From assembly GCA_011050465.1 (NCBI GenBank), contig DRFQ01000010.1, positions 15,514-79,513 of the forward strand: DNA of 64,000 nt, given 5' to 3'. Within the stretch, counting starts at the first letter, position 1, and every line of letters starts with the position of its first letter. The translations under genes were made by a program, and so were the position numbers. This DNA comes from Candidatus Nealsonbacteria bacterium. Lineage in GTDB: Bacteria; Patescibacteriota; Minisyncoccia; Minisyncoccales; RBG-13-36-15. Shown here one piece after another: positions 13,453 through 59,185 of the stretch. The notes below the pieces were generated by a model. It ran no database searches and had not been told where the DNA came from. It saw only the letters and a program-made list of their open reading frames with translations.

Positions 13453-13580
13453 TAACCACCAATAAAACACTAATTAAGACCACCAATAGAACACTAATTT
13501 AACACAAATATTCACTAATAACGTATTCGTGATAATTAGTGAGTAATTCGTAATTTATTCGTGGTTGTGATTCGCGGCAT
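13450..13580 (+). repeat. 131-bp intergenic module, copy 1 (TTAGTG/TTCGTG word array filling the pilB stop to regulator ATG gap)
   Basis: Differs from 15014-15144 at 6 positions over 131 bp by manual alignment. Confidence 0.9.
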
Positions 13581-15016: not shown

Positions 15017-15144
15017 TAACCACCAATAAAACGCTAATTAAGACCACCAATAAAACACTAATTTAACACAAATATTCACTAATAACGTATTCGTGATAAT
15101 TAGTGAGCAATTCGTAATTTATTCGTGGTTGTGATTCGTGGTCT
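15014..15144 (+). repeat. 131-bp intergenic module, copy 2 (pilT stop to pilC ATG)
   Basis: Near-identical to 13450-13580. Both copies start at the upstream TAA and end at the downstream ATG. Confidence 0.9.
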
Positions 15145-21558: not shown

Positions 21559-21687
21559 AAATCTCAATTTTCAATGACCAATAAATTAATCAACCCCCCC
21601 AATTCCTAAATTTCTAAAAATAATTGATTATTAAGTCATTGAATAGTCATTGAGATTTGGGCATTGGTCATTTTGAAGATTAAAACA

Positions 21688-22098
21688 ATGAAGCAATGTA
21701 ACAATATAACCCCGAAAAGAAATCAAAGATTTCTAACGGGACAGGTAATGCAGCGAGGTGTTGCTATCTATCTTGCCATAGTAATTATGTTCGTTTTGCT
21801 TGGTATTGGTTTGGGGATAAGCACTCTTTTAGTCGGGCAAATCAGAATAATTAGAGGAATGGGCTATTCAGTAGTTGCTCTTTATGCTGCCGATACCGGA
21901 ATTGAGAGAGTTTTATATGCGATTAGAAAGGAAAATCCACCATATGTTCCTGTCGCTGGCGATGAACCTTTCACTGGTGCTGCTTTAGATAATGGTGCTA
22001 CCTATACAGTAAAGATTATTTCAGCTAATGGGACCCTTACTATTAATTCAATAGGCGTTTATCAAGGAACTAGCCGAGCAATAGAAATTTCCTATTAA
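21688..22098 (+). CDS. PilX-like minor pilin
   Basis: QRGVAIYLAIVIMFVLLGIGLG N-terminal segment. Alternative start at ATG 21748 (MQRG...). The track ORF starts at TTG 21664. Confidence 0.6.
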   Translation: MKQCNNITPKRNQRFLTGQVMQRGVAIYLAIVIMFVLLGIGLGISTLLVGQIRIIRGMGYSVVALYAADTGIERVLYAIRKENPPYVPVAGDEPFTGAALDNGATYTVKIISANGTLTINSIGVYQGTSRAIEISY

Positions 22099-35667: not shown

Positions 35668-37857
35668 GTGAGAAGGAGAAAAGACAAAAAGAAATTTAAG
35701 AAAAACACAGAGAAAAGAAAAAATCATAACCCTCCAATTTTATATAAAAAGACTAAAGCTTGGATTACAGGAATTTTAATGATTTTGGTGGGGGTAATTT
35801 CTTTCTTGAGTTTTTTTAATCAAGCCGGGATAGCTGGAAGGGTATTTTTTGACGGATTTAGCTTTCTGATTGGAAAAAGTATCTTTTTAATCCCACCCCT
35901 TTTCTTGTTGGGTGGGATTTTGTTTTTAAAAAAGAGCCGGCAGAGAATCTATCTACCGATATTGTTGGGAATTTTTATTCTAATATTAGGAACTTCAGGC
36001 ATGATATCGATTTTTCAATTGGTCCAGACAAAGGGGATAGCAGACGGAATTAATCAATTAATCATAAAAGAAGGGGGAATAATGGGTTTTCTAATGGCTT
36101 TGCCGCTAGAAAAAACCTTTGGGGTAGAAGTAACTTTCATTATAAATTTAGCAGTAATCATTATTGGCGGTTTAATCTTGATTCAATTTTTGCTGCCAGA
36201 AAAAGACAAAATAGTCTTCGAAAAAGAACCTTCTTTTTTATCTATTCGGAAAATTTTAACTCCTAAATTTAAGATAAAAGAAATACCTCCCCTGGCTGGG
36301 ACTTCGACCTCTTTTCCGGAAGAAAAAAGAAAGACCCCGGAAATTCTTGTTCAATCTCAAACTCCAGAAAATCTCTTAGCCAAAGATCTGAAAGTTAAAC
36401 CGATCGAAGAAAAGAATAAGATTATTTATCAAAGGCCTCCCCTAGACCTTTTGGAGTCTGACCATGGAAAGCCTAGCCCCGGAGACATTAAATCCAACTC
36501 AGTCGTTATTAAAAAGACTCTTCAAAATTTTGGTATTCAGGTTGAAATGTCAGAAGTCAATATTGGCCCGACCGTAACTCAGTATACTTTTAAACCAGCT
36601 GAAGGAGTGAAACTTTCTCGAATCACGGCCTTAAATAATGATCTATCCTTAGCCTTAGCTTCTCATCCAATCAGAATAGAGGCTCCCATTCCTGGCCGGT
36701 CTTTAGTGGGGATTGAAGTGCCCAACAAAGTAAGGGCTCAGGTTAGGCTGAGACATTTAATTGCTCATCCAAGTTTTCAGAATTCACCCGCCAATCTTCT
36801 TTTGTCCTTAGGCAGAGACGTCGCCGGCAATCCTGTTTTTGCTGATTTGGCTCGGATGCCTCATTTATTAGTCGCTGGTTCTACGGGTACGGGCAAGACC
36901 ATTTGTCTTAATAATTTAATTTCGAGTCTTTTATATCGTAATCCTCCAGAAACCTTAAGATTTATTTTAGTTGATCCAAAAAGAGTAGAGTTTCCTGTCT
37001 ATAATCAACTTCCTCATCTTTTAACTCCGGTAATTTTTAATGTCAATCAAACTATTAATGCTTTAAAGTGGTTGACTAGTGAAATGGAGAGGAGGTTTGA
37101 TGTTTTATCTGAGGCTAGAACTCGAGATATTGCTGTCTATAATGAAATGATGGGACGGGAAGGTCAGACTATGCCTTATATTGTTTTAATTATTGATGAA
37201 TTGGCTGACTTGATGGCGGCTCGTGGTCGAGACATTGAGGCAGGAGTTGTCAGAATAGCCCAAATGGCCAGAGCAGTAGGTATTCATTTGATAGTTGCAA
37301 CCCAGCGGCCATCAGTTGAAGTAATTACCGGGCTGATTAAAGCAAATATTACTTCTCGGATTACTTTTCAGGTAGCTTCTCAAGTTGATTCGAGAACAAT
37401 TCTAGATATGGCCGGAGCCGAAAAGTTATTGGGAGCAGGAGATATGCTTTATATTTCTTCCGATGTTTCTAAACCAAAAAGAATTCAGGCAGCTTATATC
37501 TCAGAAAAAGAAGTCAAAAGAGTGACTAATTGGATCAAGAAAGCAGAGAAACCAAAAGGAGAAATAGTAGAAGATCTAAGCGAAAGCCTGGAAAAGACAT
37601 TAACCTTACCAGGGGAAACAACAGAGACCTTTTCTGAGGAAGGAGAAGACCCTCTCTTTGAAGAAGCAAAAAAAGTAGTTATTGAAGCCAAAAAGGCGTC
37701 AGCTTCCCTGCTACAACGAAGATTAAGGGTAGGATATGCTCGGGCAGCCAGATTAATTGATATGATGGAGGAAAAAGGGATTGTTGGCCCGGGAGAAGGG
37801 GCAAAGCCAAGAGAGGTTTACATTGAGACCGAAGAGGAAGAGCGTTCGGAAATGTGA
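35668..37857 (+). CDS. ftsK: DNA translocase FtsK/SpoIIIE
   Basis: 729 aa. N-terminal TM helices, GSTGTGKT Walker A, IDELADLM Walker B, C-terminal gamma-like winged helix (LLQRRLRVGYARAARLIDMMEEKGIV). GTG start. Confidence 0.9.
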   Translation: MRRRKDKKKFKKNTEKRKNHNPPILYKKTKAWITGILMILVGVISFLSFFNQAGIAGRVFFDGFSFLIGKSIFLIPPLFLLGGILFLKKSRQRIYLPILLGIFILILGTSGMISIFQLVQTKGIADGINQLIIKEGGIMGFLMALPLEKTFGVEVTFIINLAVIIIGGLILIQFLLPEKDKIVFEKEPSFLSIRKILTPKFKIKEIPPLAGTSTSFPEEKRKTPEILVQSQTPENLLAKDLKVKPIEEKNKIIYQRPPLDLLESDHGKPSPGDIKSNSVVIKKTLQNFGIQVEMSEVNIGPTVTQYTFKPAEGVKLSRITALNNDLSLALASHPIRIEAPIPGRSLVGIEVPNKVRAQVRLRHLIAHPSFQNSPANLLLSLGRDVAGNPVFADLARMPHLLVAGSTGTGKTICLNNLISSLLYRNPPETLRFILVDPKRVEFPVYNQLPHLLTPVIFNVNQTINALKWLTSEMERRFDVLSEARTRDIAVYNEMMGREGQTMPYIVLIIDELADLMAARGRDIEAGVVRIAQMARAVGIHLIVATQRPSVEVITGLIKANITSRITFQVASQVDSRTILDMAGAEKLLGAGDMLYISSDVSKPKRIQAAYISEKEVKRVTNWIKKAEKPKGEIVEDLSESLEKTLTLPGETTETFSEEGEDPLFEEAKKVVIEAKKASASLLQRRLRVGYARAARLIDMMEEKGIVGPGEGAKPREVYIETEEEERSEM

Positions 37858-39362: not shown

Positions 39363-39566
39363 CTATTTTGTGGTATATGGAAGCAACCCAAAATGGCGTG
39401 CTCTTTTTATGGCTTTTGCGAGCTTCCTTTGATGCAAGGAACAAACTCTGGTCCTTTTTTTGGCTCTGATTTTGGCCAGACCGGAGGTAAATTTCCCCAA
39501 AGTTCTAATATCTTTAAAGTCAATTTCTTGAAAGTTGTGTTTACAAAAATAACAGTTACCGTCCAT
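39363..39566 (-). CDS. rpsR: 30S ribosomal protein S18
   Basis: 67 aa. CYFC...IDFKDIRTLGKF...RKLAKAIKRARHFGLLPY. Part of a conserved rpsF-ssb-rpsR arrangement. Confidence 0.85.
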   Translation of the reverse strand: MDGNCYFCKHNFQEIDFKDIRTLGKFTSGLAKIRAKKRTRVCSLHQRKLAKAIKRARHFGLLPYTTK

Positions 39567-39642
39567 TGCTAAATTGCTAAATTGCTACATTGCTACATTG
39601 AAAAATCAGTTTGACAATTCAACAATGTAGCAGTGCAACAAT
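39567..39642. repeat. 8-bp tandem array (tgctaaat x2, tgctacat x2) plus CAATGTAGCA words immediately 5' of the rpsR start
   Basis: The gene-sense strand reads caATGTAGcaATGTAGcaatttagcaatttagcaATGgac. Confidence 0.85.
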
Positions 39643-40193
<551 letters not shown>

Positions 40194-44396: not shown

Positions 44397-46079
44397 TTAT
44401 ACCTCTATAACAACGGGAAGAATCATGGGGCGTCTTTGTGTTTTTGTGTATAAGAATTGCCCGATTTTATTTCTGATTTCATCTTTTACATAAACCCAAT
44501 TAACAGCCTTTCCAGATCCAGCCGTTTGATTGACAATAGCAATAACCTTTTTGCGCGTAGCAGCTAACAATTCTTTTGACTCTCTTAAATAAACAAAACC
44601 TCTTGAGATTATGTCTGGGGAACCTCGAACTTGGCCAGTTTGTCTATCAATTACAGCGACGATAACAAACATTCCATCTGTAGCTAGTGTTTGGCGGTCT
44701 CTAAGAACTACCTCTCCAACGTCTCCGACACCCAAACCATCAACCATAATATAATTTGAGGGGACAGTCTTTTTTGTGATAAAAGCCATTTGCTGATTTA
44801 AGTTAATAATCTGGCCATTTTCAGCTAGAATGATATTTCTTTCTGGAATTCCTTGAGATTTAGCTAGATTAGCGTTAGCAATCAACATAGATAACTGTCC
44901 ATGAACTGGAAAAAAGAACCTTGGATTCATAATCCTGATCATTTGCTTTAATTCTTCTTGCTGGGCGTGACCGCCGGCATGGATATCCATCATTTGGTAA
45001 TGAAAGACTTCGGCTTTTTGACGATAAAGTCCATCTTTTAAGATTTGGACCGTTCTCTCGTTTCCGGGAATAACCGACGAAGAAAAGATAACAGAATCTC
45101 CTTTTTTCAGGCGCAAGATGGGATGTTCTTTGTTGGCAATTCTCATCAAAACTGCCTGTCCTTCGCCCTGGGCTCCGGTGCAGATAATGGTTATTTTGGA
45201 ATCAGGCCATTTTATTAAATCTTTAGTCTTCATTAAAGTTCCTTTTTTTGCTTTAAAATAACCTAAGTTTCGGGAGATCTCAATATTTGTTTTCATTGAA
45301 TAACCCTCGACCGCTACTTTTCTTCCGTATTTTTCAGACAAAGACACTATTTGCTGGATTCTATTAATAAGAGAGGCAAAAGTAGCAGCAATGATTCTGC
45401 CTTTTGCTTCTTTAAATATTTCATCTAAATTTTTTAAAATTAGACTTTCAGAAAGAGAATGACCTTTTTCCTCGGCCCCCGTTGAATCAGACATTAGAAG
45501 CAAGATTTTTCGAGAACTCAATCTATGTAATTTTCTAAAATCGGTCGGCAAGTCATTAACTGGGGTAGAGTCAAATTTAAAATCAGAGGTATGCAAAAGA
45601 TTTCCAATAGGGGTTTGGATAAAAAGACCCAAGTTGTCGGGAATATTATGATTTTGGCGGAAAAATTCCACCCCAAAAGGGCCAAGTTTTATTCTTGAGC
45701 CGTTTTTGACAGTTTGGATTTCCAGCTTTTTTCGAATCGGGAAATCTTGTTGTCTTTTCAAGATAATTCCTCGTGCCAAAGGAGAGGCGAAAAGAGGCGG
45801 ATAACCCAACTTTTCTATTAAATAAGGAACCGCCCCGATATGATCGTAGTGACCATGGGTGAACACTACCCCTAAAATATTTTTTTCTTTTCCTTTCAAA
45901 TAAGAGATATTCGGTATAATATAATCGACTCCTGGCATATCTTCTTCTGGCATTCGAAAACCCATATCAATAATTAAAATCTTTCCTTGCCATTCCAGAA
46001 CTATCATATTCCGGCCAACCTCGCTTAATCCTCCCAGGGGGATTATTATAAGATTTGATTGTTTAAATGTTTTTTTCAT
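44397..46079 (-). CDS. rnj: Ribonuclease J (beta-CASP metallo-beta-lactamase)
   Basis: Start re-set to ATG 46079 (MKKTFKQSNLIIIPLGGLSEVGRNM...). FTHGHYDHIG motif. The first 82 codons of the track ORF run through a repeat element and tRNA-Leu. Confidence 0.85.
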   Translation of the reverse strand: MKKTFKQSNLIIIPLGGLSEVGRNMIVLEWQGKILIIDMGFRMPEEDMPGVDYIIPNISYLKGKEKNILGVVFTHGHYDHIGAVPYLIEKLGYPPLFASPLARGIILKRQQDFPIRKKLEIQTVKNGSRIKLGPFGVEFFRQNHNIPDNLGLFIQTPIGNLLHTSDFKFDSTPVNDLPTDFRKLHRLSSRKILLLMSDSTGAEEKGHSLSESLILKNLDEIFKEAKGRIIAATFASLINRIQQIVSLSEKYGRKVAVEGYSMKTNIEISRNLGYFKAKKGTLMKTKDLIKWPDSKITIICTGAQGEGQAVLMRIANKEHPILRLKKGDSVIFSSSVIPGNERTVQILKDGLYRQKAEVFHYQMMDIHAGGHAQQEELKQMIRIMNPRFFFPVHGQLSMLIANANLAKSQGIPERNIILAENGQIINLNQQMAFITKKTVPSNYIMVDGLGVGDVGEVVLRDRQTLATDGMFVIVAVIDRQTGQVRGSPDIISRGFVYLRESKELLAATRKKVIAIVNQTAGSGKAVNWVYVKDEIRNKIGQFLYTKTQRRPMILPVVIEV

Positions 46080-46103
46080 AGTTAAAATGATACTGATAAG
46101 AAT

Positions 46104-46224
46104 CCGGCACTGAAGCGAAGCCCAGAACCAGAGCAGAACTCGGTTTTGGGCTGTCCCGAACTTCGTTCTGGTTCGGGGCTCGGTGCTGGATTGGTCCTGC
46201 ACCGAACGAAGTTTTGGTGCGGGA
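46104..46224. repeat. GC-rich bipartite hairpin element(s), intergenic copy
   Basis: cccagaaccagagcagaactcggttttggg...cccgaacttcgttctggttcgggg...cctgcaccgaacgaagttttggtgcggg. Same family as 50235-50318, 56285-56368 and 58963-59027. Confidence 0.8.
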
Positions 46225-46249
46225 GATTTGCACTCTTTTATTTCTATTA

Positions 46250-46331
46250 TGGGCAGGGAGGGGGTCGAACCCTCAAGCCTTTCGGCATACGACCCTGAAC
46301 CGTACGTGTTTACCAGTTTCACCACCTGCCC
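46250..46331 (-). tRNA. tRNA-Leu (anticodon CAG), long variable arm
   Basis: Reverse complement: acceptor GGGCAGG/CCTGCCC, anticodon arm TACGG-TTCAGGG-TCGTA, T arm GAGGGTTCGACCCCCTC. Confidence 0.8.
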
Positions 46332-46604: not shown

Positions 46605-47172
46605 CAAGGAAATCCAAATTTTTTGGCATTTTCTTTAAAGATTTTTTAAATCGTAACTTCGGCACTTTCTTGTAATTTTTATTTTTTATCCAACCAGACC
46701 TTGTATAGTAATAACAAGCTCCCTGCCTTTTTTCGAATAGATTATAAGAATTTTTACATTTTTTAGAAATCCAGTTAGCAATTTTTAATTCTTCTTTAGA
46801 AGCATTAATAGTTATATGGCCATAATAAGGAGGAACGATAACAATAGCACCGATTTTAGCTCTAACAGCGTAAACATCTTCAATTGTCTTATTTCTATAT
46901 TTCTGAAACAGAAAAATCGCTTTTCCTTTCAATACTTTGTAAACTTCCTGAAAGGTTTTAAGATGTTCGTGTCCTTTTGTTTTGGGGAATTCTTTTCCCA
47001 GCATTTTAGTTTTTATTTCTGTGATATCATACCTTAATTCACCTTTTGTTTTAATGCCCCGATACATATAATAAATCTCAAAATTGGCAGTTTTTTTTAG
47101 CCATTCTTGATCGTAGACCACTCTCTTCATGTCGTTTAAGAAACGGATTTCTGGTTTTTTTCTTATTTCCAT
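46594..47172 (-). CDS. pgiA: Cupin-type (archaeal-type) glucose-6-phosphate isomerase
   Basis: 192 aa. LGKEFPKTKGHEHLKTFQEVYKVLKGKA and IVIVPPYYGHITIN match the TKGHFH...EVY and VPPYWAHRTVN metal-binding motifs of Pyrococcus-type cupin PGI (recalled from memory). Confidence 0.8.
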   Translation of the reverse strand: MEIRKKPEIRFLNDMKRVVYDQEWLKKTANFEIYYMYRGIKTKGELRYDITEIKTKMLGKEFPKTKGHEHLKTFQEVYKVLKGKAIFLFQKYRNKTIEDVYAVRAKIGAIVIVPPYYGHITINASKEELKIANWISKKCKNSYNLFEKRQGACYYYTRSGWIKNKNYKKVPKLRFKKSLKKMPKNLDFLAPH

Positions 47173-49187
47173 GACCTTTTAGTTTTAATGTACCAATTTT
47201 CAATGTCGATAAATCTTTTCGAGGGATCAGCCACTATTTTTGTTTTTATTCCTTTAATCTCTTCAGAAACCAGATAGAGATAGTCCGGAGAATATAAAAA
47301 TACAGCCGGAGCATCTTTAATTATAATATCTTGGAAAATGCGATATTTTTCTAATCTTTCTTTTTCATCCAAAATTTGTCGAGCCTCTTCAAGAAGTTTA
47401 TCAGCCTCTTTGTTGCCATAAAGGGAAAGATTTAACCCTGGCTCTCTTTTTTGAGTAGAATGCCAGAAAGGGTAGGGATCTGGGATTAGACCCATTATTT
47501 TTCCAAAAAGAAGACTTTCGTAATCTCGAGGGTTCCAGAAATCTTGCTCCAGACTTAAGAGAGAAACTTTCTTAACCTCCAATTGTACCCCCAGAGCCTC
47601 CCATTGTTTTTTGATTAAATCAGCCGCTTGGCTGAGTTCTTCTTGGTCAATCGTTACTAAAGAGATTTTTAGTGGCAAAACTTTTTTGGGAGCATCGACA
47701 CAAACTTCATTTAATTTAGCTCGAGTTGTTTTACTGACAATTCCTGTTCCTTGTGCAAATCCCCAGGGTTCTAAAATATCTTCAGAATATTTCTCTTGAA
47801 ACCTAATGACCGCTTTTTGGGTTTTTTCGCCAAAGTAACCAGTTATTTCTCCTTCTGGATAAACTTGCGGATCTTTACTAAGACAACTTTGGAGATTTCT
47901 AACATCTTCGTCTTGGCTTCCTTTTTTAAGGTCTTTCTTAAATAAAATTTCCACTGCTTCTTGGATAATTTTCTCTCTTTTTCCGTCCCCATCTTCGTCC
48001 CGCCAGCCAGCTTGTTGTAAAATCTCTTTTCCTTTTTCTAAGTCAAACTGATAACCATCGGGAGCCGAGATGTTATAGATTCCCGGCACAAAAGGAGACT
48101 CTACTATTTTACCGTAACCCAAAAGAATTTCTTCCAGAAGAGCTTTTTTATTTATTCCATAGTTCAAAGCCTTCCTTACTGATTTTTCTGCCAAAATTTC
48201 AGACTTCTCTGGATTGAAAGAAATATCAAAATAGCGAGGGAAAGAAAAATTATAAACCTTAAAACCTTCACTTTTTATAGTTTTAAGATTTTTTGGAGAA
48301 ACGTAATCCAGGCCTTTAATTTCTCCTCTTTGAAGGGCTTTAATTGAGTCCTGCTTATTTTCAAAAAAATGAAACGAGATTTCTGTTAGGTAGGGTTTTT
48401 TCCCAAAATAATTAGAATTCTTAACAAGAGTTAGGGAAGTGATATAGCCCGTTCTGTCATTTTTTTTCAAGTCTTTAAGCCTGAAAGGGCCTGTTCCAAT
48501 TGGTTTAAAATTATAAATAGCCAAGGGGAAATTTTCAGAAGAGATATCTTGCCAGATGTGTTTTGGTAAAATTTTAAAGGTTAAGGTTTCTAAAAAAGGA
48601 GCATAGGGGTTCTTTAATTTAAATCTAACCTTGAAGTTATTTATTTTCTCTACTTCTACTCCGAATAAAGAAACCCTCAGTTGTTTGCTGTTATAATCTG
48701 GATCTTGGATTATTTTGACTGTAAAAACTACATCATCGGCTGAAAAGATCTCGCCATCATGCCAGTAAACATTTTCTAACAGATCAAATTCATATACTTT
48801 ACCGTTTTCTTTAATGTTAGGGTATTCTTTGGCCAAATCCGGTACGATATCTCCGTCAGAATTATATTTCATTAAACCCGAGAAGATGAGTTCAGTTAAA
48901 TCTCGATCAACATCATTGGCCGGGGCATAAATTGGATTAATGAATCTTGGTTGGCCAATTAATCCCTCACTATAGCTTCCTCCCGAAGTCGGCCGGAATT
49001 CAGTATTTTGAAAATAGAAGCTTAAGCCGAGAAAAATACCAGACCCTATAAACAAAAAACAAAAAAGAAAGAAAGCTATCTTTTCTCTCCTTTTTAGAAT
49101 TTTAAAAAATTGCTTTAATTGAAAAAAAGCTGGGAATTTTCGTCCTTTTGAAAATTTTAAAGTAGCTTTTAGATTTTTGAGATTCAA
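47163..49187 (-). CDS. Family-5 (peptide/nickel type) extracellular solute-binding protein with an inserted peptidoglycan-binding-like segment
   Basis: 674 aa. N-terminal TM anchor, SBP_bac_5-like core, inserted DVRNLQSCLSKDPQVYPEGEITGYFGEKTQKAVIRFQEKY. No ABC permease or ATPase gene is adjacent. Confidence 0.65.
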   Translation of the reverse strand: MNLKNLKATLKFSKGRKFPAFFQLKQFFKILKRREKIAFFLFCFLFIGSGIFLGLSFYFQNTEFRPTSGGSYSEGLIGQPRFINPIYAPANDVDRDLTELIFSGLMKYNSDGDIVPDLAKEYPNIKENGKVYEFDLLENVYWHDGEIFSADDVVFTVKIIQDPDYNSKQLRVSLFGVEVEKINNFKVRFKLKNPYAPFLETLTFKILPKHIWQDISSENFPLAIYNFKPIGTGPFRLKDLKKNDRTGYITSLTLVKNSNYFGKKPYLTEISFHFFENKQDSIKALQRGEIKGLDYVSPKNLKTIKSEGFKVYNFSFPRYFDISFNPEKSEILAEKSVRKALNYGINKKALLEEILLGYGKIVESPFVPGIYNISAPDGYQFDLEKGKEILQQAGWRDEDGDGKREKIIQEAVEILFKKDLKKGSQDEDVRNLQSCLSKDPQVYPEGEITGYFGEKTQKAVIRFQEKYSEDILEPWGFAQGTGIVSKTTRAKLNEVCVDAPKKVLPLKISLVTIDQEELSQAADLIKKQWEALGVQLEVKKVSLLSLEQDFWNPRDYESLLFGKIMGLIPDPYPFWHSTQKREPGLNLSLYGNKEADKLLEEARQILDEKERLEKYRIFQDIIIKDAPAVFLYSPDYLYLVSEEIKGIKTKIVADPSKRFIDIENWYIKTKRSWK

Positions 49188-49495: not shown

Positions 49496-49861
49496 TTATT
49501 TTAAGAAAGATTTTTTAGGCTTAGGAAATAAAATTGAAACAACAAACCCAAGCCCCCAAATAACAAGGGTTGTCCAGAGAAGAGGTATAATTAACGGAAT
49601 GGTCAGTTCAAAAAAAATAAGATCCACTGTCCAGATAATCAGCATATTAATAATTAAACTAAAAAGCCCGAAAGTCAACAGCCTTAGCGGAAGAGTTATA
49701 AAATTCAGAATCGGTTTTAAAAAGAAATTTAAGAGCCCAAGAATTAGTCCGGCTAAAAGGAGGTATTTATTCTCTCCGACAAATTCCACCCTTGGAATAA
49801 ACTGAATGACCAGCCAAAGTCCTAAAATTCCGGAAACAATCTGTAAAATTAACTCTCTCAT
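49496..49861 (-). CDS. Small four-TM membrane protein (phage-holin-4_2 / DUF360-like)
   Basis: 121 aa. GLLNFFLKPILNFITLPLRLLTFGLFSLIIN resembles the family signature (recalled, not searched). Confidence 0.5.
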   Translation of the reverse strand: MRELILQIVSGILGLWLVIQFIPRVEFVGENKYLLLAGLILGLLNFFLKPILNFITLPLRLLTFGLFSLIINMLIIWTVDLIFFELTIPLIIPLLWTTLVIWGLGFVVSILFPKPKKSFLK

Positions 49862-49943: not shown

Positions 49944-51704
49944 TTAGCGACCTGTTTTTCCACCACGAGAGGAAACACCAATGCGTTTCCCCCGATCCCT
50001 CCTCTGGGAATTGCCAAACGCAATTTCTCTTAATTTTCTATGATAAGCAAGAGCAAAACGGTGGGCTTCGTCGCGGAGTTGCAAAATTAAATTAAAGATT
50101 TCTCGAGGAAGACTTTTTAATAAAATCGGCTTCCCCACACCAGCCTTCGTCCCGAGGTCCTCGGCTGAGCTCGGTCGAATGCCCTCAGGCCGAGGGGAAA
50201 TTTTGTTCAGGTCTCGGACTGGTCCGGCCCCGTGCCCCGAACCAGAAACTTTGTTTCGGTTCAGGACTGGTCCAGCACCGAGCTTCGCTCTGGTGCTGGG
50301 CTCGGCTCTGGTGCTGGGTTTCCGATTTTCTACAAATAGCTCGTTTTTTTTCTTCGCAAGAGCAATAACAGGAATTGCTAATTGTTGATTGCTAATCGTT
50401 GATTGAACAGCATTTAATTGGGCCTTGCCACCGTCAATTAGAATTAAATCTGGAAAGCCCCACTCAGAGTGTTTTAATCTTCGTTTAATGATTTCTTTTA
50501 TCATCGCAATATCATTTGGTTTGTCTGTAATTCTAATCTTAAATTTTCGATAACAATTTTTATCGGGTTGACCATTAATAAAAGTTACCATTGAACCGGT
50601 GGCTAGTTTACCCTGAATATTAGAAATATCGTAAGCTTCGATCCGAGATATTTTTTTCTTTATTTTAAGGAGATTTTGAAGAACTTCTTGAATTTTTAGC
50701 CAGTTTTTCTCTAAACTTATCGAGATTAATTTCTTTTCCCTAAAGATTTTAGCGCGTCCTCCCAAATCCCGCCCTCTCTGGAGAGAGAGCGGGACTAGGT
50801 GGGTATGAGCAAAAACTCTTTCTATGGCGTTAATTTGGTCTCTAATTCTGGCTGCTATTTCAAAGTTTTTTAAGGCAGAAGCATTTTTCATTTCTTTTTG
50901 CAATTTTTTTAAAACCAACTGTTTTCCTCCTTTCAAAACAGTGATTAGATTTTTAATATTTTTTTTATACTTTTTTAAATCAGGGTTGGGGCCGGGGCAG
51001 AGATTTAATTGACACCAAAGACATAAAGTTTCGGGGTGCCGTTTTACGGTGTAATAGGGGAAAATTTTTCTGAGGATTCTTAAAGTTATTTTAAGGGCAG
51101 AGCCCTCTACAAAAGGCCCGATGTAAATAGATTTTGGGCTTGTCCGCCCAGTCCCGCCTCTTTTGGAAAGGGGCGGGATTTTGGCGGGTTGGTGGGTTAA
51201 GAAAACTTGGGGGAAATATTCCCCAGTTATTCCCACAAAAAAATAGTTTTTGTCGTCCCGCCACAGAATATTATATTTTGGCTGATATTTTTTGATTAGT
51301 TTGGCTTCTAAAATCAAAGCCTCAATTTCTGAGCCTGTTTTCAAGTAACCAATCTTTCGGATTTTATTTATAAAAAGAGGACTCTTGAATCCTGGCCTAG
51401 AAAAATGATTTTTTACCCTTTTTCTGATATTTGAAGCCTTGCCAATGTATAAGAATCTGTCTTTAGTAGAACCTTGATTCTTTGCTTCGTTCGGAAATAA
51501 GAACCTTGACTTCGTCAAGGACCTTGAATACTTCATATTTAAAAATTCCCTATCTTTTTTTTCGCCTACGCTTGTTGCAAGCGAGCTTCGGCGGATCCGC
51601 CGTAGCTCCGACTTTGTCGGAGCAGAGGCGGAAAAAGCATAAACTCCGGGGCCTTTTGGCAGTTCCGAGATTTTATTTTTATCTAAAAATCTAAATTTTT
51701 TCAT
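49944..51704 (-). CDS. uvrC: Excinuclease ABC subunit C, carrying several GC-rich in-frame insertions and no recognisable C-terminal (HhH)2 domain
   Basis: 586 aa. GPGVYAF...LYIGKASNIRKRVKNHF (GIY-YIG), UVR-like helix, IEAYDISNIQG, LILIDGGKAQL, RDEAHRFALAYHRKLR. Confidence 0.85.
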   Translation of the reverse strand: MKKFRFLDKNKISELPKGPGVYAFSASAPTKSELRRIRRSSLATSVGEKKDREFLNMKYSRSLTKSRFLFPNEAKNQGSTKDRFLYIGKASNIRKRVKNHFSRPGFKSPLFINKIRKIGYLKTGSEIEALILEAKLIKKYQPKYNILWRDDKNYFFVGITGEYFPQVFLTHQPAKIPPLSKRGGTGRTSPKSIYIGPFVEGSALKITLRILRKIFPYYTVKRHPETLCLWCQLNLCPGPNPDLKKYKKNIKNLITVLKGGKQLVLKKLQKEMKNASALKNFEIAARIRDQINAIERVFAHTHLVPLSLQRGRDLGGRAKIFREKKLISISLEKNWLKIQEVLQNLLKIKKKISRIEAYDISNIQGKLATGSMVTFINGQPDKNCYRKFKIRITDKPNDIAMIKEIIKRRLKHSEWGFPDLILIDGGKAQLNAVQSTISNQQLAIPVIALAKKKNELFVENRKPSTRAEPSTRAKLGAGPVLNRNKVSGSGHGAGPVRDLNKISPRPEGIRPSSAEDLGTKAGVGKPILLKSLPREIFNLILQLRDEAHRFALAYHRKLREIAFGNSQRRDRGKRIGVSSRGGKTGR

Positions 51705-51818: not shown

Positions 51819-54800
51819 TTATGGAGGTGATATTGGGAACCCCCAACTTACAAACTGGGGTGTTAAATCCACCCCCGCGTTTCCGCTTAATAAATGAGCA
51901 AAAAGCTCTACTTTTTCAAGATCGGTTGCTGGTGGAGATTCAGTTAAAGTCGCAAAATCCCGAAAAGTTTGCCGAAAAGGTTCCCAACCAATGTCTTCCT
52001 TTAATAAATAGAGAAGCCCCGTATAAGCGTCGCCCGACATATTCTGCCAGTCAGTACGGCTAGAATCTATCCAAGGGAGTGCATAACCTTCTACAAAATA
52101 TTGATACGAAAATTCTCCGATAGGGACATAGCCTACAGGGCCTTGATAAAATGTTGCGGTAGGGTAGGTATTAGAAAGCACATCAGCCACATAAGTTAAC
52201 TTAAAATTTGCCCAGTGTTCAGAGTTTATGGGGCTACCTCCCGCGTAGTGTTGAGATAATGCGTCAAGATCGAAATCATGGCTTAATTCATGAATCGGAC
52301 CGAAGCTTAAATCGTTTTGAGTATTGATTGCTTCAAGGGCATCAGGAACATAATCTCCAAGCCAGAGAATTGGATTTCCTGCGATCATGAGACCTCCGGC
52401 ATAATTAACAATTTCCTGTATTAATATTTTGTCACCATTATAAGGAGTCTGTCCAGTAAGATTATGAAGAGCAAGGTAGGCGTCGTCAAGTTTCTGAAGC
52501 CAACTGTTTGGGTCTGTTAGTAATGAACGGTGCTCAGGCAAGAAGCATATAACCACATGTTGTCCCCCAAAAGGAGGGTCAAGCTTTTCAAATGACATAT
52601 CATCAAAAAAGACAGTTCCCGTGACAAGCGACCAACTATATCCGATCCGAGCAGCAACAGTTACAGTGTCTGATGCTATAGAACAGAAAAACAAGCTTTC
52701 TTCTATCCAGTCTTGAGTCCCCCAGATTCCTGGCGAACGATTAAATGATAAATAAACGGAAAGGTTAGCTCCCGTGCTCCAGCCGCCGGGTGTATCAGAT
52801 AAAACAACATTTTCAGTTTTTATCCACCCCTTAAATAGATAAGAGTTATAAGGCTCTACTGAAACATTCTGTATCCACATGGCATCGTTGGGGACTGATG
52901 AAGTAATTTTAGCCGAACCCACCCCACTTCTTACAGTAGATCCGTCTGAAATCCACTCAAAAGAAGAAGGTCCGTTTCCGCCCCACTGGTTTATTGTCCA
53001 ACCAGTAGGCATGCCTCCTGAGCCACTTTCAAAACCAGGATTTGCTACAAGTGAAAGGGTCGCCTCTGTTACCGTTAAATTATAAGTTACTGTTCTGGTC
53101 AGGGCAGTAACAGTAATTGGAAAGGTGCCAGCAGGAGTGTCAGGAGAGGTCATAATGGTCATTGTTGAAGAACAGGTAGGATTGCAAGAGGTTGGAGAAA
53201 AGGAGATATCCACTGTTAGGTCAACCATTATTGGCTCAGCCGAGGCAGAAAAGCCAACAGATTCAGAAGTGCCCGAAATTAAGGTGATATCAATAGGGAC
53301 GGAAACTGAGTTACCTTGAATTACTGAGGTAGGGGCAACGGAACTGACCGAAAGGTCAAAAAAGAAAGGGTGAATAATGGCCAAAGTGTAAATAGCAGTT
53401 TTAGTTAATGTTCCGCTAGCACCAGTGACGGTGATATCATAAGTTCCCTCAAGAGGGATACCATCAGCAAAGGCGTTAATAGTCATGGTCGAGGAACAGG
53501 GAGATTCACAACTAGTTGGGCTTAAAGAACCCGTAGTTCCTGGAGGAAGGTCGAAAGAGAAATCAACGGTTTGAGCAAAACCACCCATAGAATCAACAGT
53601 GACCGTAGTTGAGATTGAATCACCTTCAGTCACTGTGCCAGAATTTGGACCGACCGAGAGACTAAAGGCAGGAGTAATACAGCTTTCATCTGCTTGGCAT
53701 TGCTGGCCAGAGGAACAGCCACAAGTACTACAATTATTTATTAAGATTCCATTTTGGCAATATAATGGTTGATTAGTTGAACATTGGTTGTAGGAAGTAC
53801 CGTCTGCACATATTAGGGCAGTGCAGACACCTTCACTGCAAGCCTCATTTGATGTGCAATCATCATAAACACTCCAATCGTCCCATTGTAAGGAACCGTC
53901 GCAGTTCGCTGAAATTCCAGAACAGTATCTATCTTGATATTTTATTCCAACATCATCTCCAAGATCGCTTCCCCAAGGACAACCGTATTCTACATTAACA
54001 TTATTTTGACATTGGTAAGTGGAAGGCCTAAAGGTATTTGTCGAAGTATCGCAACAAGACCCAGAAGTACATTGAAGAGTAGCAACGTTTATGGTTACCC
54101 TGTCCTCGGTGGTCAATCCGCCTCTTTCCACAATAACCTTAGCAGTGTAGGTTCCTTCTGATGGGTAATTGCAGACATCCGTATAAGAGCTAGTGAAAAC
54201 ATAATCTATTCTATTATTATAACCAGGCATAACATCTGTTCCCGCATCAGAACGGTCACAATAAAAAATATAATTAGCTGGCCCAGTATCTATTCCGGAA
54301 ACTTGGGCAGTAAGCTCAATATCTAAAGGGGCATTGCCGGACGAAGGATCGACAGATAAAGAAACTGAGAAGGTAGGAGTAACACAGCTTTCATCTGCTT
54401 GGCATTGCTGACCAGCGGGACAGCCGCAAGAGCTACATTTGTCAATTAGGTTACCATTCTCGCAATATATTGGTTTTATTGAGGAGCATTCGCTATAAAT
54501 TGTATTATCATCACATCTTTGTATGACCTCATATTCACACTTTGAATCTTTTGTTAAAGGATTAAGACACTTATCAATGGTTTCAGAGTTCTTATCATCA
54601 CAATCTACGTCTGAACAACATTCATAATTTTTACATTGGCGATTTTCGACATATTTACAATAATCACATATTATTATTTGACAAGTATTACTATCACAGA
54701 CTTCATTTTCTTTGCAATCATTGTGATCTAAGCATTTTATCGGCTCAGGTGGTTCTATCGGTTCTGACATTTGTTTTGCAAGGTAAAAATATAACCCTCC

Positions 54801-54881
54801 GGTTATTAAGCCAGCAACAACTATAACAAAAATTATACCGATTAAAAGTTGTCCTTGATTATGAAATCTAGATTTTTCCAT
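51819..54881 (-). CDS. Large membrane-anchored, Cys-rich multidomain surface protein with Ig/PKD-like repeats, a CBM-like jelly-roll segment and a C-terminal HExxH (zincin-like) domain
   Basis: 1020 aa. N-terminal TM helix (LLIGIIFVIVVAGLITGGLYFYL), two copies of a Cys module (C..C...YC.NG.LI..CS.CGC..GQQCQADESC.TP.F), PKD-like SVSLSVDPSSGNAPLDIELTAQ, GFESGSGGMPTGW segment, HELSH at 52278-52292. Confidence 0.7.
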   Translation of the reverse strand: MEKSRFHNQGQLLIGIIFVIVVAGLITGGLYFYLAKQMSEPIEPPEPIKCLDHNDCKENEVCDSNTCQIIICDYCKYVENRQCKNYECCSDVDCDDKNSETIDKCLNPLTKDSKCEYEVIQRCDDNTIYSECSSIKPIYCENGNLIDKCSSCGCPAGQQCQADESCVTPTFSVSLSVDPSSGNAPLDIELTAQVSGIDTGPANYIFYCDRSDAGTDVMPGYNNRIDYVFTSSYTDVCNYPSEGTYTAKVIVERGGLTTEDRVTINVATLQCTSGSCCDTSTNTFRPSTYQCQNNVNVEYGCPWGSDLGDDVGIKYQDRYCSGISANCDGSLQWDDWSVYDDCTSNEACSEGVCTALICADGTSYNQCSTNQPLYCQNGILINNCSTCGCSSGQQCQADESCITPAFSLSVGPNSGTVTEGDSISTTVTVDSMGGFAQTVDFSFDLPPGTTGSLSPTSCESPCSSTMTINAFADGIPLEGTYDITVTGASGTLTKTAIYTLAIIHPFFFDLSVSSVAPTSVIQGNSVSVPIDITLISGTSESVGFSASAEPIMVDLTVDISFSPTSCNPTCSSTMTIMTSPDTPAGTFPITVTALTRTVTYNLTVTEATLSLVANPGFESGSGGMPTGWTINQWGGNGPSSFEWISDGSTVRSGVGSAKITSSVPNDAMWIQNVSVEPYNSYLFKGWIKTENVVLSDTPGGWSTGANLSVYLSFNRSPGIWGTQDWIEESLFFCSIASDTVTVAARIGYSWSLVTGTVFFDDMSFEKLDPPFGGQHVVICFLPEHRSLLTDPNSWLQKLDDAYLALHNLTGQTPYNGDKILIQEIVNYAGGLMIAGNPILWLGDYVPDALEAINTQNDLSFGPIHELSHDFDLDALSQHYAGGSPINSEHWANFKLTYVADVLSNTYPTATFYQGPVGYVPIGEFSYQYFVEGYALPWIDSSRTDWQNMSGDAYTGLLYLLKEDIGWEPFRQTFRDFATLTESPPATDLEKVELFAHLLSGNAGVDLTPQFVSWGFPISPP

Positions 54882-54954
54882 TTCGGACTTTTTATATAAA
54901 TTTCAATATAGATTCTGTGTCTTTTCATTGTTATGATATAATAAAATTGACTTA

Positions 54955-55731
54955 ATGAAAAATAAGAGTATAGAAAATCAACAATTTTCTTCATTACCCC
55001 CTCAGCCTGAAATTTCTTCATTGCCGGGAATTGGTGATTTGTTCAGTAGAACCTGGCAGATTTATAAGGAAAGAATTTGGGTTTTTCTCGGGATAATGAT
55101 TTTACCCGTTTTTATCAATCTCGGGATTGCTTTATTCTCGGGTGGCTTATTTATATCTGTATCAGAACCAGAGCGATTATCTCCATTATTGACAATCTGG
55201 CTACCAGTCATGCCCATTTTTGTTTTAACGGCTATTATTATTAACCTTTGGGCGCCTGTAGCCTTACTTTATGCCACCAAAGAAAGAGAAGAAAAAATCA
55301 GAATTAAAGAATCTTTTGTCAGGGGTTGGCATAAAATAATTTCTTATTCTTGGATTTCTTTTTTAATGGGAATAATTATTTTTTTTGGTTTTTTGCTTTT
55401 TATTATCCCTGGTATTATTTTTATTATTTGGTTTAGTTTGGCGACTTATGTTTTGGTTGCCGAAGATTTAACCGGAACAAAAGCTTTATCGAGAAGCAAA
55501 CAATTGGTTAGCGGAAATTGGTGGAAGGTTTTCTGGCGATTTTCGGTAATTACCATAATTGCTATTGTTATTTCCCTCATTATTAATTTTATTAGCAGAT
55601 TAGCGGGAATTCCTCGAGAGATTGATATTTTTTCCGTAATTATTTTACTGTTCTTTGTTCCTTTTGCTGTAACCTATACCTTTCTTATCTATGAAGACTT
55701 AAGAAAACTTAAAGAAAGCGTTCCTATTTAG
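54955..55731 (+). CDS. Multi-pass membrane protein, function unknown
   Basis: 258 aa. About 5-6 TM helices. No motif recognised. Confidence 0.5.
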   Translation: MKNKSIENQQFSSLPPQPEISSLPGIGDLFSRTWQIYKERIWVFLGIMILPVFINLGIALFSGGLFISVSEPERLSPLLTIWLPVMPIFVLTAIIINLWAPVALLYATKEREEKIRIKESFVRGWHKIISYSWISFLMGIIIFFGFLLFIIPGIIFIIWFSLATYVLVAEDLTGTKALSRSKQLVSGNWWKVFWRFSVITIIAIVISLIINFISRLAGIPREIDIFSVIILLFFVPFAVTYTFLIYEDLRKLKESVPI

Positions 55732-55846: not shown

Positions 55847-58840
55847 ATGTCCCAAGATTTTATAAAAATCAGAGGAGCTCGAGTCCATAACCTAAAAAAC
55901 ATTGACGTCGATATTCCTAAAAATAAATTGGTGGTTATCACCGGTATTTCAGGTTCTGGCAAATCGTCTTTAGCATTTGATATCTTATATGCTGAAGGCC
56001 AAAGAAGATATGTTGAATCATTATCTGCTTATGCCAGGCAATTTTTGGGAATAATGCAAAAGCCTGATGTGGAAAAAATAGAAGGGATATCACCTGCCAT
56101 TTCTATTGACCAAAGAAAATCAGCCCATAATCCTAGATCTACCGTTGGCACAATTACCGAAATTTATGATTATCTAAGACTATTGTTTGCTAGGGCCGGT
56201 AAACCCCACTGTCCAAAGTGTAAAAAATTAGTTGCCCGTCAAACCATTGATCAAATAGTTGAACAAATCCTGAAATTGTCTAAACCCAGCACCAGAGCGA
56301 AACCCAGCACCAGAGCCGAGCACGGTGCTGGACCAGCCCGAGACCCGAACAAAGCATCTGGTGCGGGGAAAACCGAAATTACTATTTTAGGCCCAATTAT
56401 TCGCAGCCAGAAAGGCGAGCATCGAGGCTTAATAGAGGAAATTCAAAGAGGAGGATTTATTCGGGTGAGAATTGATGGTATCATTTACCGAACAGAGGAG
56501 GCCTTAGAAAAATCATTAGACAAAAAGAAGAAACATGATATTGAGGTGGTGGTAGATAGATTAATGATTGAGAAAAGTTTGGATAAATCTCGGTTGGTTG
56601 ATTCATTAGAGACAGCCTTGAAATTAGGAAAGGGCATCGTAATAGTAAATCAGAAACTTTTCATTGCGAAGCAATTGCCCATTGTTCGCACACAGCAAGG
56701 AGCGGAACGATTGGTTCATAAATCTAAAAATCTGAAATCTAATGACTTAATTTTCAGCGAGCATTTCGCCTGTGAGGAATGCAGTGTTTCTTTGCCGGAA
56801 TTGGAGCCCCGTCTTTTTTCTTTCAATTCTCCTTATGGAGCCTGTCCGGCCTGCCATGGATTGGGGGAAAAATTAGAAGTTGACCCAAAATTAGTTATCC
56901 CTAATCATAATTTAACAATTGCTGAAGGCGCTATTAGGCCCTGGATGAAGGCTTCTCATAAGATAGGGAGACAAAGTTATTTCTGGTGGAAATTATCTGA
57001 TTTGGCAGAAAGGCTTAAATTTTCTTTAACAGATTCCGTTAAAAATTTACCTCAAGAAATCATTCAGATTATTCTATATGGCGATGAGGAGTTTGAGGGA
57101 GTGATTCCTTCGTTGGAACGAAGATATCGAGAAACTGAATCAGATTACACTCGGGAAGAGATTAAGCAATACATGATAGAAAAGAAATGTGAGCAGTGCC
57201 AGGGAAAAAGGTTGAAGCCGGAAGTTTTGGCAGTAACAGTCGCTGAAAAATCAATTAATCAAATAGTTGAGACAAGCATCGAGAGATTAAAAGTGTTTCT
57301 CAGCGGGTTGTTAAGCTCTAAGTCTCGTGCCTCAAAGCCTGACGAGATAAAAATCATCCAACCAATTATTAAGGAAATTATAAATAGATTACAATTTCTG
57401 ATTGATGTTGGGCTTGGTTATTTGACCCTGAACCGTAAAGCTGGCACTTTAGCTGGAGGCGAGGAACAGAGAATAAGGCTAGCCACCCAAATTGGATCAA
57501 AGCTTACCGGGGTTTTGTATATTTTAGATGAACCATCGGTAGGCCTTCATTCCCGAGACCAGGACAGACTAATTAAAATATTGAAGAAATTAAGAGATAC
57601 GGGCAATACCATTGTAGTTGTTGAACATGATCCCCGGACAATAAGGGCAGCTGACTGGATTATTGATGTTGGTCCTGGGGCCGGGAAACACGGGGGAAGA
57701 ATTATCTTTAAAGGCACACCAAAAAAGCTGCTTGAAGCCCATACTTTGACGGGGGATTATATGTCCGGGAGGAAGAAAGTGAAAATAAGTCATGGTAGTC
57801 AAAAAAGCCATAAGAGTTTTACAGCTGCCACAGCTCCTATGGCTCAATATCTCATAATCAAAGGCGCGCAAGAGCATAACCTTAAGAATATTGATGTGAA
57901 GATTCCTCTTGGTAAATTTATTTGTATTACCGGAGTTTCAGGGTCTGGCAAGAGTTCTTTGATGAATGATGTTTTGGCCCGGGCTTTATTGAAAAAGTTT
58001 TATAGAGCCAAAGAAGAACCAGGCAAACACAAAGAAATCTCTGGAATTGAAAATTTAAATAAAGTAGTTTTAATTGACCAATCACCAATTGGCCGTACTC
58101 CCAGGTCAAATCCCGCAACTTATACGGGATCTTTCTTTTTCATTAGAGAGCTTTTTTCACAAAGTCGGGAGGCCAGGATTAAAGGATACTTACCCGGCCG
58201 ATTTAGTTTTAACGTTAAAGGAGGAAGATGTGAAAATTGCGAGGGACAGGGTCAAATTAAGATTGAAATGTATTTTTTACCGGATGTATATATTCAATGT
58301 CAAGAATGTCAGGGGAAAAGATTCAATAAAGAAACCCTAACCATTGAATATAGGGGAAAGAATATTGCCGATGTCTTAAAAATGACAGTAGAAGGAGCTT
58401 TAGATTTTTTTAAAAATATTCCCGGACTTTATCTAAAACTCAAAACTTTGAATGATGTTGGTTTAAGCTATCTTCAACTAGGACAACCTGCCCCTTCTTT
58501 GTCGGGAGGAGAAGCTCAGAGAATTAAATTAGCTGCCGAACTCTCAAAAAAGGGGACCGGCAGAACTTTATATATTTTGGACGAACCAACAACTGGCCTT
58601 CATCCAGACGATATTAAAAAATTACTTTTCGTCTTGAAAGAGTTAGTTAATAAAAACAATACTGTTCTTTGTATTGAGCATAATTTAGATGTAATAAAAA
58701 ATGCTGACTGGATTTTAGATTTAGGGCCAGAGGGAGGTGAACAAGGAGGATATATCGTGGCCGAAGGAGACCCAGCTAAAATTACAAATAATAGAAAAAG
58801 CCACACCGGAAGATATTTAAAGGCCGTACTTAATGCTTAA
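55847..58840 (+). CDS. uvrA: Excinuclease ABC subunit A
   Basis: Start re-set to ATG 55847 ([24 protein letters not shown]...). Two ABC ATPase modules ([20 protein letters not shown]), zinc modules (CPKCKK, CEEC...[12 protein letters not shown]...CQEC). Confidence 0.95.
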
Positions 58841-58885: not shown

Positions 58886-59027
58886 GTCCCGCACTGAAAG
58901 AACTTTAGTGCGGGACTGCGCCTCCTTCGTCGCTTGTTATTCGAAACCTGCCCCGTAGTGAGCCCCGCACCAGAACGAAGTTCGGTGCGGGACTAGTCCA
59001 GAACCGAGCTCTGCTCTGGTTCTGGGC
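58886..59027. repeat. Cluster of GC-rich hairpin elements
   Basis: gtcccgcac-tgaaagaacttta-gtgcgggac (58886-58916), cctgccccgtag core (58947-58958), bipartite element ccccgcaccagaacgaagttcggtgcgggactagtccagaaccgagctctgctctggttctggg (58963-59027). Confidence 0.8.
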
Positions 59028-59185
59028 TTGTTCTACTGCGAGGTTCTTCTACCGTGATTGACAAATTATTTAAAATAAATTAAGCTTTATAGAGTATTAA
59101 TCTAAACTTTCAATAGTTAACAGTCCTTAAAAGATTTTTAATATTATTTATTATTTACTGTTCACTGCTGTCTGTTTATTAATTT

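Follow-up and report, generated by a model that had tools for sequence, protein, structure and literature searches.

A putatively membrane-anchored surface protein with a predicted M60-like peptidase head in a Nealsonbacteria-related Patescibacterium

The stretch of DNA analyzed here (64,000 nucleotides of contig DRFQ01000010.1, Candidatus Nealsonbacteria bacterium; hereafter the window) carries, between uvrC and uvrA, an intact open reading frame (ORF) of 1020 codons on the minus strand (51819–54881; ORF listing of the window). We consider it fairly probable that the product is a zinc endopeptidase, anchored to the cell and guided by glycans, whose substrates are external or host-envelope glycoproteins. 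It appears to be a type-II-anchored extracellular protein of a Nealsonbacteria-related Patescibacterium, in which a long stalk carries a C-terminal head made of a jelly-roll and an M60-like domain; the catalytic activity, glycan dependence and biological target of this head are predicted. A first-pass annotation of the DNA had already proposed an anchored, Cys-rich, multi-domain surface protein, an architecture that the tools bear out: the ORF, the single N-terminal membrane helix and the Cys-rich region are all where it had placed them (ORF listing, hydropathy and Cys positions, respectively), HELSH lies at the position it gave (52278–52292; residues 864–868), and the GFESG that it noted is at residues 617–621. 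A near-identical protein (P0001, differing at about one residue) with the same neighbors is present in an independent Logan assembly (SRR8451930; locus L001), and the N-terminus of the protein is also kept in the ortholog found on a second locus, L002.

The case for a peptidase begins with the C-terminal domain. A full-length homologue search matched mostly the Cys, PKD-like and Ig modules of the protein and, P0001 excepted, none of its matches covered residues 766–1020; because such a search is swamped by the stalk modules the C-terminal domain was searched separately. Against 1.84 billion representatives residues 766–1020 returned 491 homologues at E≤1e-3, including 212 at E≤1e-10. Among the 138 near-full-length family sequences H864, E865 and H868 are retained in 137 and E888 in every one, with a His-to-Glu spacer of 11 to 25 residues (19 in the query). 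The family-defining motif of M60-like peptidases is HEXXHX(8,28)E (PMC3267712), and the query, with H864-E-L-S-H868 followed by 19 residues and E888, satisfies this gluzincin motif. Judged by the family alignment, the predicted zinc ligands (H864, H868 and E888) and catalytic base (E865) are complete. The Pfam family Peptidase_M60 (PF13402) is reached by the domain alone (26.3 bits against a gathering cut-off of 25.8), whereas the full-length query scores 21 bits, under the cut-off. All 17 sequences of the first alignment match PF13402; in P0110 and P0118 the match runs along nearly the whole model, and in some relatives it covers model positions 12–271. By these scores the query itself only just belongs to PF13402, and its family belongs to it firmly.

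Structure prediction points the same way. An AlphaFold2 (AF2) model of the domain built with the 17-sequence alignment reached a predicted local distance difference test score (pLDDT) of 92.6 and a predicted template-modeling score (pTM) of 0.91; in it HELSH forms part of a helix, and the next long helix, reached after a beta-sheet, starts with E888. With this model as query, the first six Foldseek matches in the Protein Data Bank (PDB) are all M60-like: 4FCA, 5EV7, two BT4244 entries, AM0627 and ZmpB (E ∼6e-7 and template-modeling score 0.66–0.70 for 4FCA/5EV7). ZmpC and IMPa follow lower in the list, mixed with other gluzincins such as M1 aminopeptidases, and thermolysin-like enzymes stand lower still. 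Among predicted viral structures the best named matches are baculovirus enhancins and a poxvirus M60-like protein. A 46-sequence profile run against the PDB found only M60-like chains at E<0.02 (4FCA, 1.6e-7; ZmpC, 2e-4; BT4244, 5.5e-4; BcM60C, 2e-3). These alignments extend from HExxH via the third ligand into the C-terminal helices, and H864, E865, H868 and E888 align with the HEXXH…E of 4FCA, ZmpC, BT4244 and BcM60C.

Together the sequence and the model place the C-terminal domain among the PF13402 M60-like gluzincins, with an M60-like catalytic fold predicted. Such a short motif could in principle be a fortuitous HExxH in a C-terminus that is no metallopeptidase, a concern that the first-pass annotation had itself raised about its M60/enhancin-like zincin. 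Consistent with that concern, single-sequence phmmer searches of the PDB with the full protein and with the C-terminal domain returned nothing relevant, and an AF2 model of residues 614–1020 made without an alignment was unusable (pLDDT 36). However, the conserved motif, the Pfam match, the predicted fold and the profile matches to M60-like enzymes together mean that HELSH is not a chance occurrence; we regard that explanation as refuted, with next to no probability left to it, and the zincin assignment stands.

Immediately before the peptidase domain is a segment (GFESG…W) that the first-pass annotation had called a CBM-like (carbohydrate-binding module) jelly-roll, and here too the proposal found support, through the family profile. 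Run against the PDB, the jelly-roll profile matched the hyaluronan-binding CBM70 of hyaluronate lyase (4D0Q, 3.8e-8); the alignment takes in nearly the whole profile, including the N-terminal N-x-x-F-E and C-terminal F-x-D motifs. Further matches were to carbohydrate-binding or glycan-enzyme chains, namely the GH10 structure 4MGQ, the xylanase 1K42 and the S-layer-associated endoglucanase 2ZEX. In an alignment of the query with 21 relatives 13 of the 22 sequences match CBM_4_9 (PF02018; best E 1.1e-6), and the query jelly-roll alone has no Pfam match that reaches threshold (CBM_4_9, PF02018/PF22637). The jelly-roll is thus likely homologous to the CBM_4_9 superfamily and is a putative glycan binder. 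Of 87 relatives with sufficient upstream sequence 67 carry it, and in most of them it directly adjoins the M60 domain, so that the two, as judged from these sequences, constitute a conserved two-domain head. The head is under strong purifying selection: its ratio of nonsynonymous to synonymous substitution (dN/dS) is 0.13–0.17 (0.13 for the M60-like domain), against 0.42 for the N-terminal stalk. The protein most similar to the query in its catalytic head is P0071 (79% identity). Here a Big_7 domain and a type I dockerin come after the head, and both the N-terminal membrane anchor and the stalk are missing; the head module is therefore paired with different anchoring systems.

At the other end of the protein, behind a short basic N-terminus, only residues ∼10–34 exceed a Kyte-Doolittle window value of 1.6. 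This 23-residue hydrophobic stretch, which has no small-x-small cleavage site, probably remains uncleaved as an anchor; read as an uncleaved signal-anchor, the long hydrophobic N-terminus gives an N-in, C-out orientation. A type IV pilin-like (class III) signal, suggested by G10-Q11, was ruled out: there is no N_methyl match and no Glu at +5.

These elements suggest how the protein might work. The single N-terminal helix would anchor it in the cytoplasmic membrane, and a stalk of ∼570 residues, made up of disulfide-type Cys-rich modules and beta-sandwich repeats, would project the two-domain head beyond the envelope. There the jelly-roll would dock on a glycan and the peptidase would then cut the peptide backbone of the glycan-decorated protein, outside the cell. 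Candidate substrates are envelope proteins of a host or neighbor (sheath, S-layer), detrital glycoproteins and extracellular polymers. The peptides set free would serve an organism whose own biosynthetic capacity is small, and cleavage may also aid intimate contact with a host. Combinations of a CBM with an M60-like domain are typical of the family (PMC3267712), and the proposed glycan docking followed by cleavage parallels this CBM-plus-M60-like logic. By way of context, one Ca. Nealsonbacteria in culture is found attached to Methanothrix, and lysate fractions of high molecular weight enrich it (bioRxiv 10.1101/2022.04.20.488981); the same preprint makes no mention of peptidases. Both an attack on the host envelope and the scavenging of detrital glycoproteins would fit, and the role in host interaction or predation suggested by the first-pass annotation is plausible.

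Several observations weigh against this view of the protein as a glycan-guided peptidase facing other cells. In addition to the empty single-sequence searches, the PF13402 match of the query spans only the last 57 positions of the model (219–275). The type II topology (N-in, C-out) is a judgement from hydropathy alone, and the lifestyle attributed to the organism is borrowed from a related lineage. The substrate site raises a further difficulty. Characterised O-glycopeptidases hold the initiating N-acetylgalactosamine (GalNAc) by a conserved Trp, Gly, Asn/Gln and Arg of the G1′ subsite (PMC9118916). In the profile alignment the Gly (G861) and the Asn (N892) are present in the query. However, the Trp of WGxxHExxH aligns with F860, a position that is Phe in 123 and Trp in only 6 of the 138 family members, and in the profile sequence alignments no counterpart of the Arg was identified in the query. 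Given F860 in place of Trp and no counterpart of the Arg, dependence on mucin-type O-glycans is not to be assumed. On this evidence we place the domain in PF13402 and keep it apart from the mucin-type O-glycopeptidases: its mode of action is probably theirs, exercised on a different glycan, and its target glycan may differ from that of the known mucinases.

The replaced Trp could also be taken to mean that the M60-like head is a pseudo-peptidase that only binds, carried by an adhesin or stalk protein that serves attachment to a host or surface, and a long modular stalk of Cys-rich, Ig-like and PKD-like units is typical of adhesins. But lost catalysis is usually visible as loss of zinc or catalytic residues, whereas all four are intact here and in 137 or 138 of the 138 relatives, and the head is under strong purifying selection; we think a binding-only head distinctly improbable.

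A scan of species-representative genomes shows the catalytic head family to be patchily spread over many phyla, many of them bacterial and some archaeal, in organisms that are mostly environmental rather than animal-associated. A bolder extension of the glycan-guided peptidase is that the Phe-bearing jelly-roll plus M60-like head defines a large, uncharacterised environmental glycoprotease clade with specificity for non-mucin glycans, and that the tethered version described here is used to open or hold on to the glycosylated sheath or S-layer of a host archaeon. Such a clade would comprise at least 491 clusters at 50% identity, from Patescibacteria, DPANN and other archaea, Chloroflexota, WOR-3, Bacteroidota and Clostridia. 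We hold this extension to be a long shot; were it true, the protein would be a first molecular effector for a bacterium–archaeon episymbiosis.

The stalk is far more variable than the head. In the window protein 38 of the 46 Cys lie within residues 47–401, and the N-terminal 401 residues matched no family in Pfam or NCBIfam; a hit to the NCBIfam model ‘invert_tail’ in this part (18.5 bits against a cut-off of 37) was set aside as noise. The 44-aa 8-Cys module recurs in many surface proteins of Patescibacteria and DPANN. It occurs twice in the query (residues 123–166 and 358–401), both copies being encoded by a 150-nt direct repeat of 75% identity (53665–53814 and 54370–54519). Within this repeat an exact 27-nt string is found twice, at 53679–53705 and 54384–54410 (0 expected by chance), precisely as the first-pass annotation had reported. 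The two modules are nevertheless old: they share 58% amino acid identity with a synonymous divergence (dS) of ∼1.0, and the L002 ortholog already has both, which rules out recent duplication as the source of the identity. Since the copies are old, local gene conversion or constraint is the better account of the identical 27-mer, which encodes the conserved QQCQADESC.

Of the modules between and beyond the Cys-rich regions, the PKD-like domain of the earlier description is PKD-like by motif only. Residues 170–267 are 40–78% identical to a repeated module in P0002–P0016 and others (BLAST), but the query segment has no Pfam match even at E≤10 and the profile of the module no match in the PDB. Faint matches to PKD_4 (PF18911) and PKD (PF00801) occur in 4 and 3, respectively, of the 11 sequences in an alignment of the query with 10 relatives (best E 0.012); the parts of P0009 and P0025 that score best against Pfam PKD fall outside the copies of the module. 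Of three Ig-like repeats proposed, two are clear (residues 404–504 and 508–605) and the third was not found. The two match repeated modules in P0017, P0047, P0052 and P0060 (BLAST), and each carries SPTSCxPxCSSTMTI.

Comparison with the two orthologs shows how labile this part of the protein is. The ortholog on L003 (8696–10777; 693 aa) has neither the PKD-like module nor the second Cys region and a single Ig repeat; that on L002 (652–3464) has the same kinds of module in another order, with the PKD-like module after both Cys regions. Such differences in the number and order of modules indicate rapid domain shuffling in the stalk. Both orthologs retain the jelly-roll and the M60 head.

The genomic setting of the gene bears on its history. 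Pfam confirms the flanking genes named by the first-pass annotation: uvrC (GIY-YIG, UVR and UvrC RNase H domains) and uvrA. That annotation also described the gene as more G+C-rich than its neighbors, with many long antisense ORFs, and as interrupting two DNA-repair genes; if so, it and the neighboring membrane-protein gene would constitute a recently acquired island that splits a uvrC–uvrA pair, and the patchy spread of the catalytic head family over many phyla would agree with this. The overall G+C content is indeed elevated (0.414 against a mean of 0.373 for the 42 ORFs of the window). However, the excess resides wholly at codon position 2 (0.469 against 0.349), and is therefore due to the amino acid composition of a protein rich in Ser, Thr, Gly, Pro and Cys; G+C at codon position 3 (GC3) is 0.312 against a window mean of 0.315, that is, synonymous sites are genome-typical. 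The plus-strand ORFs antisense to the gene number only six and are 57–80 aa in length, none longer.

Synteny was compared in three relatives (L002, L003 and L066). In the species-representative scan the closest relative of the catalytic domain belongs to Ca. Nealsonbacteria bacterium RBG_13_36_15 (L003; 69% identity), where order and orientation are those of the window from the g43295 homologue through the g61359 homologue. The shared block comprises oppA-like, holin-like, uvrC, surface protein, 258-aa membrane protein, uvrA, groES and groEL genes, with protein identities of 58–86%. On L002, a partial metagenome scaffold, the ortholog adjoins the same 258-aa membrane protein; on L066 (uvrA 72%) the membrane protein, uvrA and groES/EL are kept and other Cys-rich secreted proteins lie upstream until the contig ends. 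Moreover, uvrC and uvrA point in divergent directions and do not make up an operon that the gene could interrupt; the arrangement is the same in L003. With the same slot occupied in L003 and GC3 genome-typical, the gene is not a recent insertion, and we consider the island very improbable indeed; rather, the gene is a long-standing resident of a somewhat variable surface-protein slot. An occupied slot in relatives together with genome-typical composition is also what the first-pass annotation had named as refuting its view.

That stable, vertically inherited place among housekeeping genes (uvrC, uvrA, groES/EL), the genome-typical composition and the tethering to the producer's own membrane are what might be expected of a peptidase with a housekeeping task on its own envelope: the maturation or turnover of S-layer, pilus or wall-associated glycoproteins. 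Set against this are the ∼570-residue stalk, which sets the head far from the membrane, the fact that relatives carry the same head alongside a dockerin (P0071) or in other secreted settings, and the fast variation of the stalk between orthologs, which is commoner in proteins facing other organisms. None of these is decisive, and we judge an own-envelope role unlikely while continuing to prefer a peptidase that acts on external or host-envelope glycoproteins.

The features of the gene and of its divergent neighbor are collected in Table 1. In the intergenic region promoter-like hexamers occur on the minus strand at 54961–54933 and 54934–54905 (consensus matches only). The 258-aa membrane protein is the divergent neighbor of the M60 gene in L002 and L003 also; functional coupling of the two was considered and set aside, the pairing being confined to close relatives: distant homologues of the membrane protein (L067–L069 and L073) have no M60 gene nearby.

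Table 1. Features of the surface-protein gene and its divergent neighbor (positions in the window; residues of the 1020-aa protein).
Feature	Position	Strand	Basis
Whole gene, 1020-aa putatively membrane-anchored multi-domain surface protein	51819–54881	−	ORF listing; stop codon 51819–51821
Putative N-terminal signal-anchor, single hydrophobic helix, ∼residues 10–34	54780–54854	−	Kyte-Doolittle; K3, R5 and H7 precede
Cys-rich region 1, residues 47–169, 20 Cys, ending in 8-Cys module copy 1 (123–166)	54375–54743	−	Cys positions
Beta-rich module of ∼98 aa, residues 170–267, PKD-like by motif only	54081–54374	−	BLAST
Cys-rich region 2, residues 268–401, 18 Cys: ‘CCD’ module (268–357) and 8-Cys copy 2 (358–401)	53679–54080	−	Cys positions
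Two tandem Ig-like (CARDB-like) beta-sandwich repeats, residues 404–504 and 508–605	53043–53678	−	BLAST, shared motif
Likely CBM_4_9-superfamily beta-jelly-roll, residues 614–765 (GFESG 617–621)	52587–53042	−	PDB profile, Pfam of relatives
Predicted M60-like gluzincin metallopeptidase domain, residues 766–1020	51822–52586	−	Pfam PF13402, AF2, Foldseek, PDB profile
Predicted zinc site H864-E865-L-S-H868, 19 residues, E888 (HEXXHX19E)	52218–52292	−	Family alignment
Divergent intergenic region, 73 bp, between gene and membrane-protein gene	54882–54954	.	Sequence
258-aa multi-pass membrane protein, divergent, weakly YciC/UPF0259-like	54955–55731	+	Weak Pfam and NCBIfam matches

Two other genes of the neighborhood are of note. 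Just downstream of uvrC a 121-aa protein of the Phage_holin_4_2 family (49496–49861, minus strand; E 3e-16) is found, in the same place as in L003 (82% identity). The oppA-like gene (47163–49187, minus strand) encodes a 674-aa substrate-binding protein with an internal segment (∼residues 397–495) that matches part of a secreted, Cys-module-bearing protein of L066 and resembles, by eye, a peptidoglycan-binding domain; such an insert is an unusual fusion for a peptide-binding protein.

The window also contains several families of repeats. A G+C-rich element of ∼90–130 nt, with internal CCCAGCACCAGAGC units and complementary CTCGGTGCTGG, is present in four copies (50216–50321, 56282–56368, 46118–46215 and 58995–59029). 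Two of these lie in frame, within uvrC (50216–50321) and uvrA (56282–56368), and add similar peptides (one is PSTRAEPSTRAKLGAGP…). The uvrC ortholog of L003 (434 aa) is without this stretch, so the element was inserted in the lineage of the window; it looks like a MITE-like (miniature inverted-repeat transposable element) sequence tolerated within coding genes. A further copy is overlapped, together with tRNA-Leu (46250–46331, minus strand), by a 642-aa ORF with a GTG start (44397–46325, minus strand). This ORF is homologous to its L003 ortholog from residue 83 onward only, so that translation probably starts further downstream and the initial ∼80 codons are non-coding.

Other repeats are more dispersed. 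A 138-nt direct repeat of 96% identity (13448–13585 and 15012–15149) flanks the genes at 13581–15016. An 8-nt unit (CATTGCYA) forms short tandem arrays at two intergenic sites ∼38.7 kb apart (802–917 and 39554–39653), each followed by AACAATGTA-type inverted copies. Hairpin-forming repeats of 37 nt (AACCCCGAAAAG…CGGGGCAG) occur at no fewer than six sites (19816, 21708, 22954, 34974, 35615 and 18157): they are found at the 5′ ends of ORFs 19796–20386 and 21664–22098, where 82-nt copies are 83% identical, and in the gap between ORFs 31968–35609 and 35668–37857. An Rfam scan of the window returned tRNAs only.

Set beside known systems, the protein is a recognisable member of PF13402 in a large, uncharacterised and mostly environmental subfamily. 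With the M60-like O-glycopeptidases (BT4244, AM0627, ZmpA/B/C, IMPa and BcM60C/F) it has in common the predicted gluzincin fold and HEXXHX(8,28)E, the Gly that follows the aromatic residue in xGxxHExxH, and an Asn at the fourth position past the third ligand (E…N), as well as the conserved C-terminal helical bundle, fusion to a module of carbohydrate-binding type and a predicted extracellular or surface location (PMC3267712; PMC9118916). It differs from them in overall sequence (13–19% identity in structural alignments), in the GalNAc-contacting residues discussed above, and in the domain that precedes the peptidase: a CBM_4_9-type jelly-roll rather than an Ig-like N-domain, CBM32, CBM51 or BACON. 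The best structural and the best profile match is an M60-like ‘conserved domain protein’ of Bacillus anthracis (4FCA/5EV7), which aligns with the query from HExxH through the C-terminal helices but has WGPWHEVGH where the query has SFGPIHELSH, shares 18–19% identity, occurs in another domain context and is itself uncharacterised. For the jelly-roll the nearest comparison is with modules of the CBM_4_9 superfamily (CBM70 of pneumococcal hyaluronate lyase, 4D0Q; xylanase, 1K42), with which the family profile aligns; the query alone is under every Pfam threshold, and the likeness is one of profile alignment.

The intestinal mucin of insects, which is heavily glycosylated, is the substrate of a group of viral zinc peptidases, the baculovirus enhancins (MEROPS M60; Vef; PMC3267712). 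By the Foldseek comparison with predicted viral structures they belong to the same fold family as the query. They are, however, much larger, differ in architecture and origin (viral), and have no N-terminal membrane anchor.

Patescibacteria rely on other cells or on what is left of them, and most of the molecules that they use at the cell surface are unknown; our literature search found no paper naming both M60-like and Patescibacteria. A conserved, constrained and apparently surface-tethered predicted peptidase, joined to a module of glycan-binding type, is a concrete candidate for a part in nutrient scavenging or host contact. Beyond this organism, the gene draws attention to a large environmental branch of M60-like proteins in which one of the residues for glycan recognition is not the one seen in the gut mucinases that have been studied.

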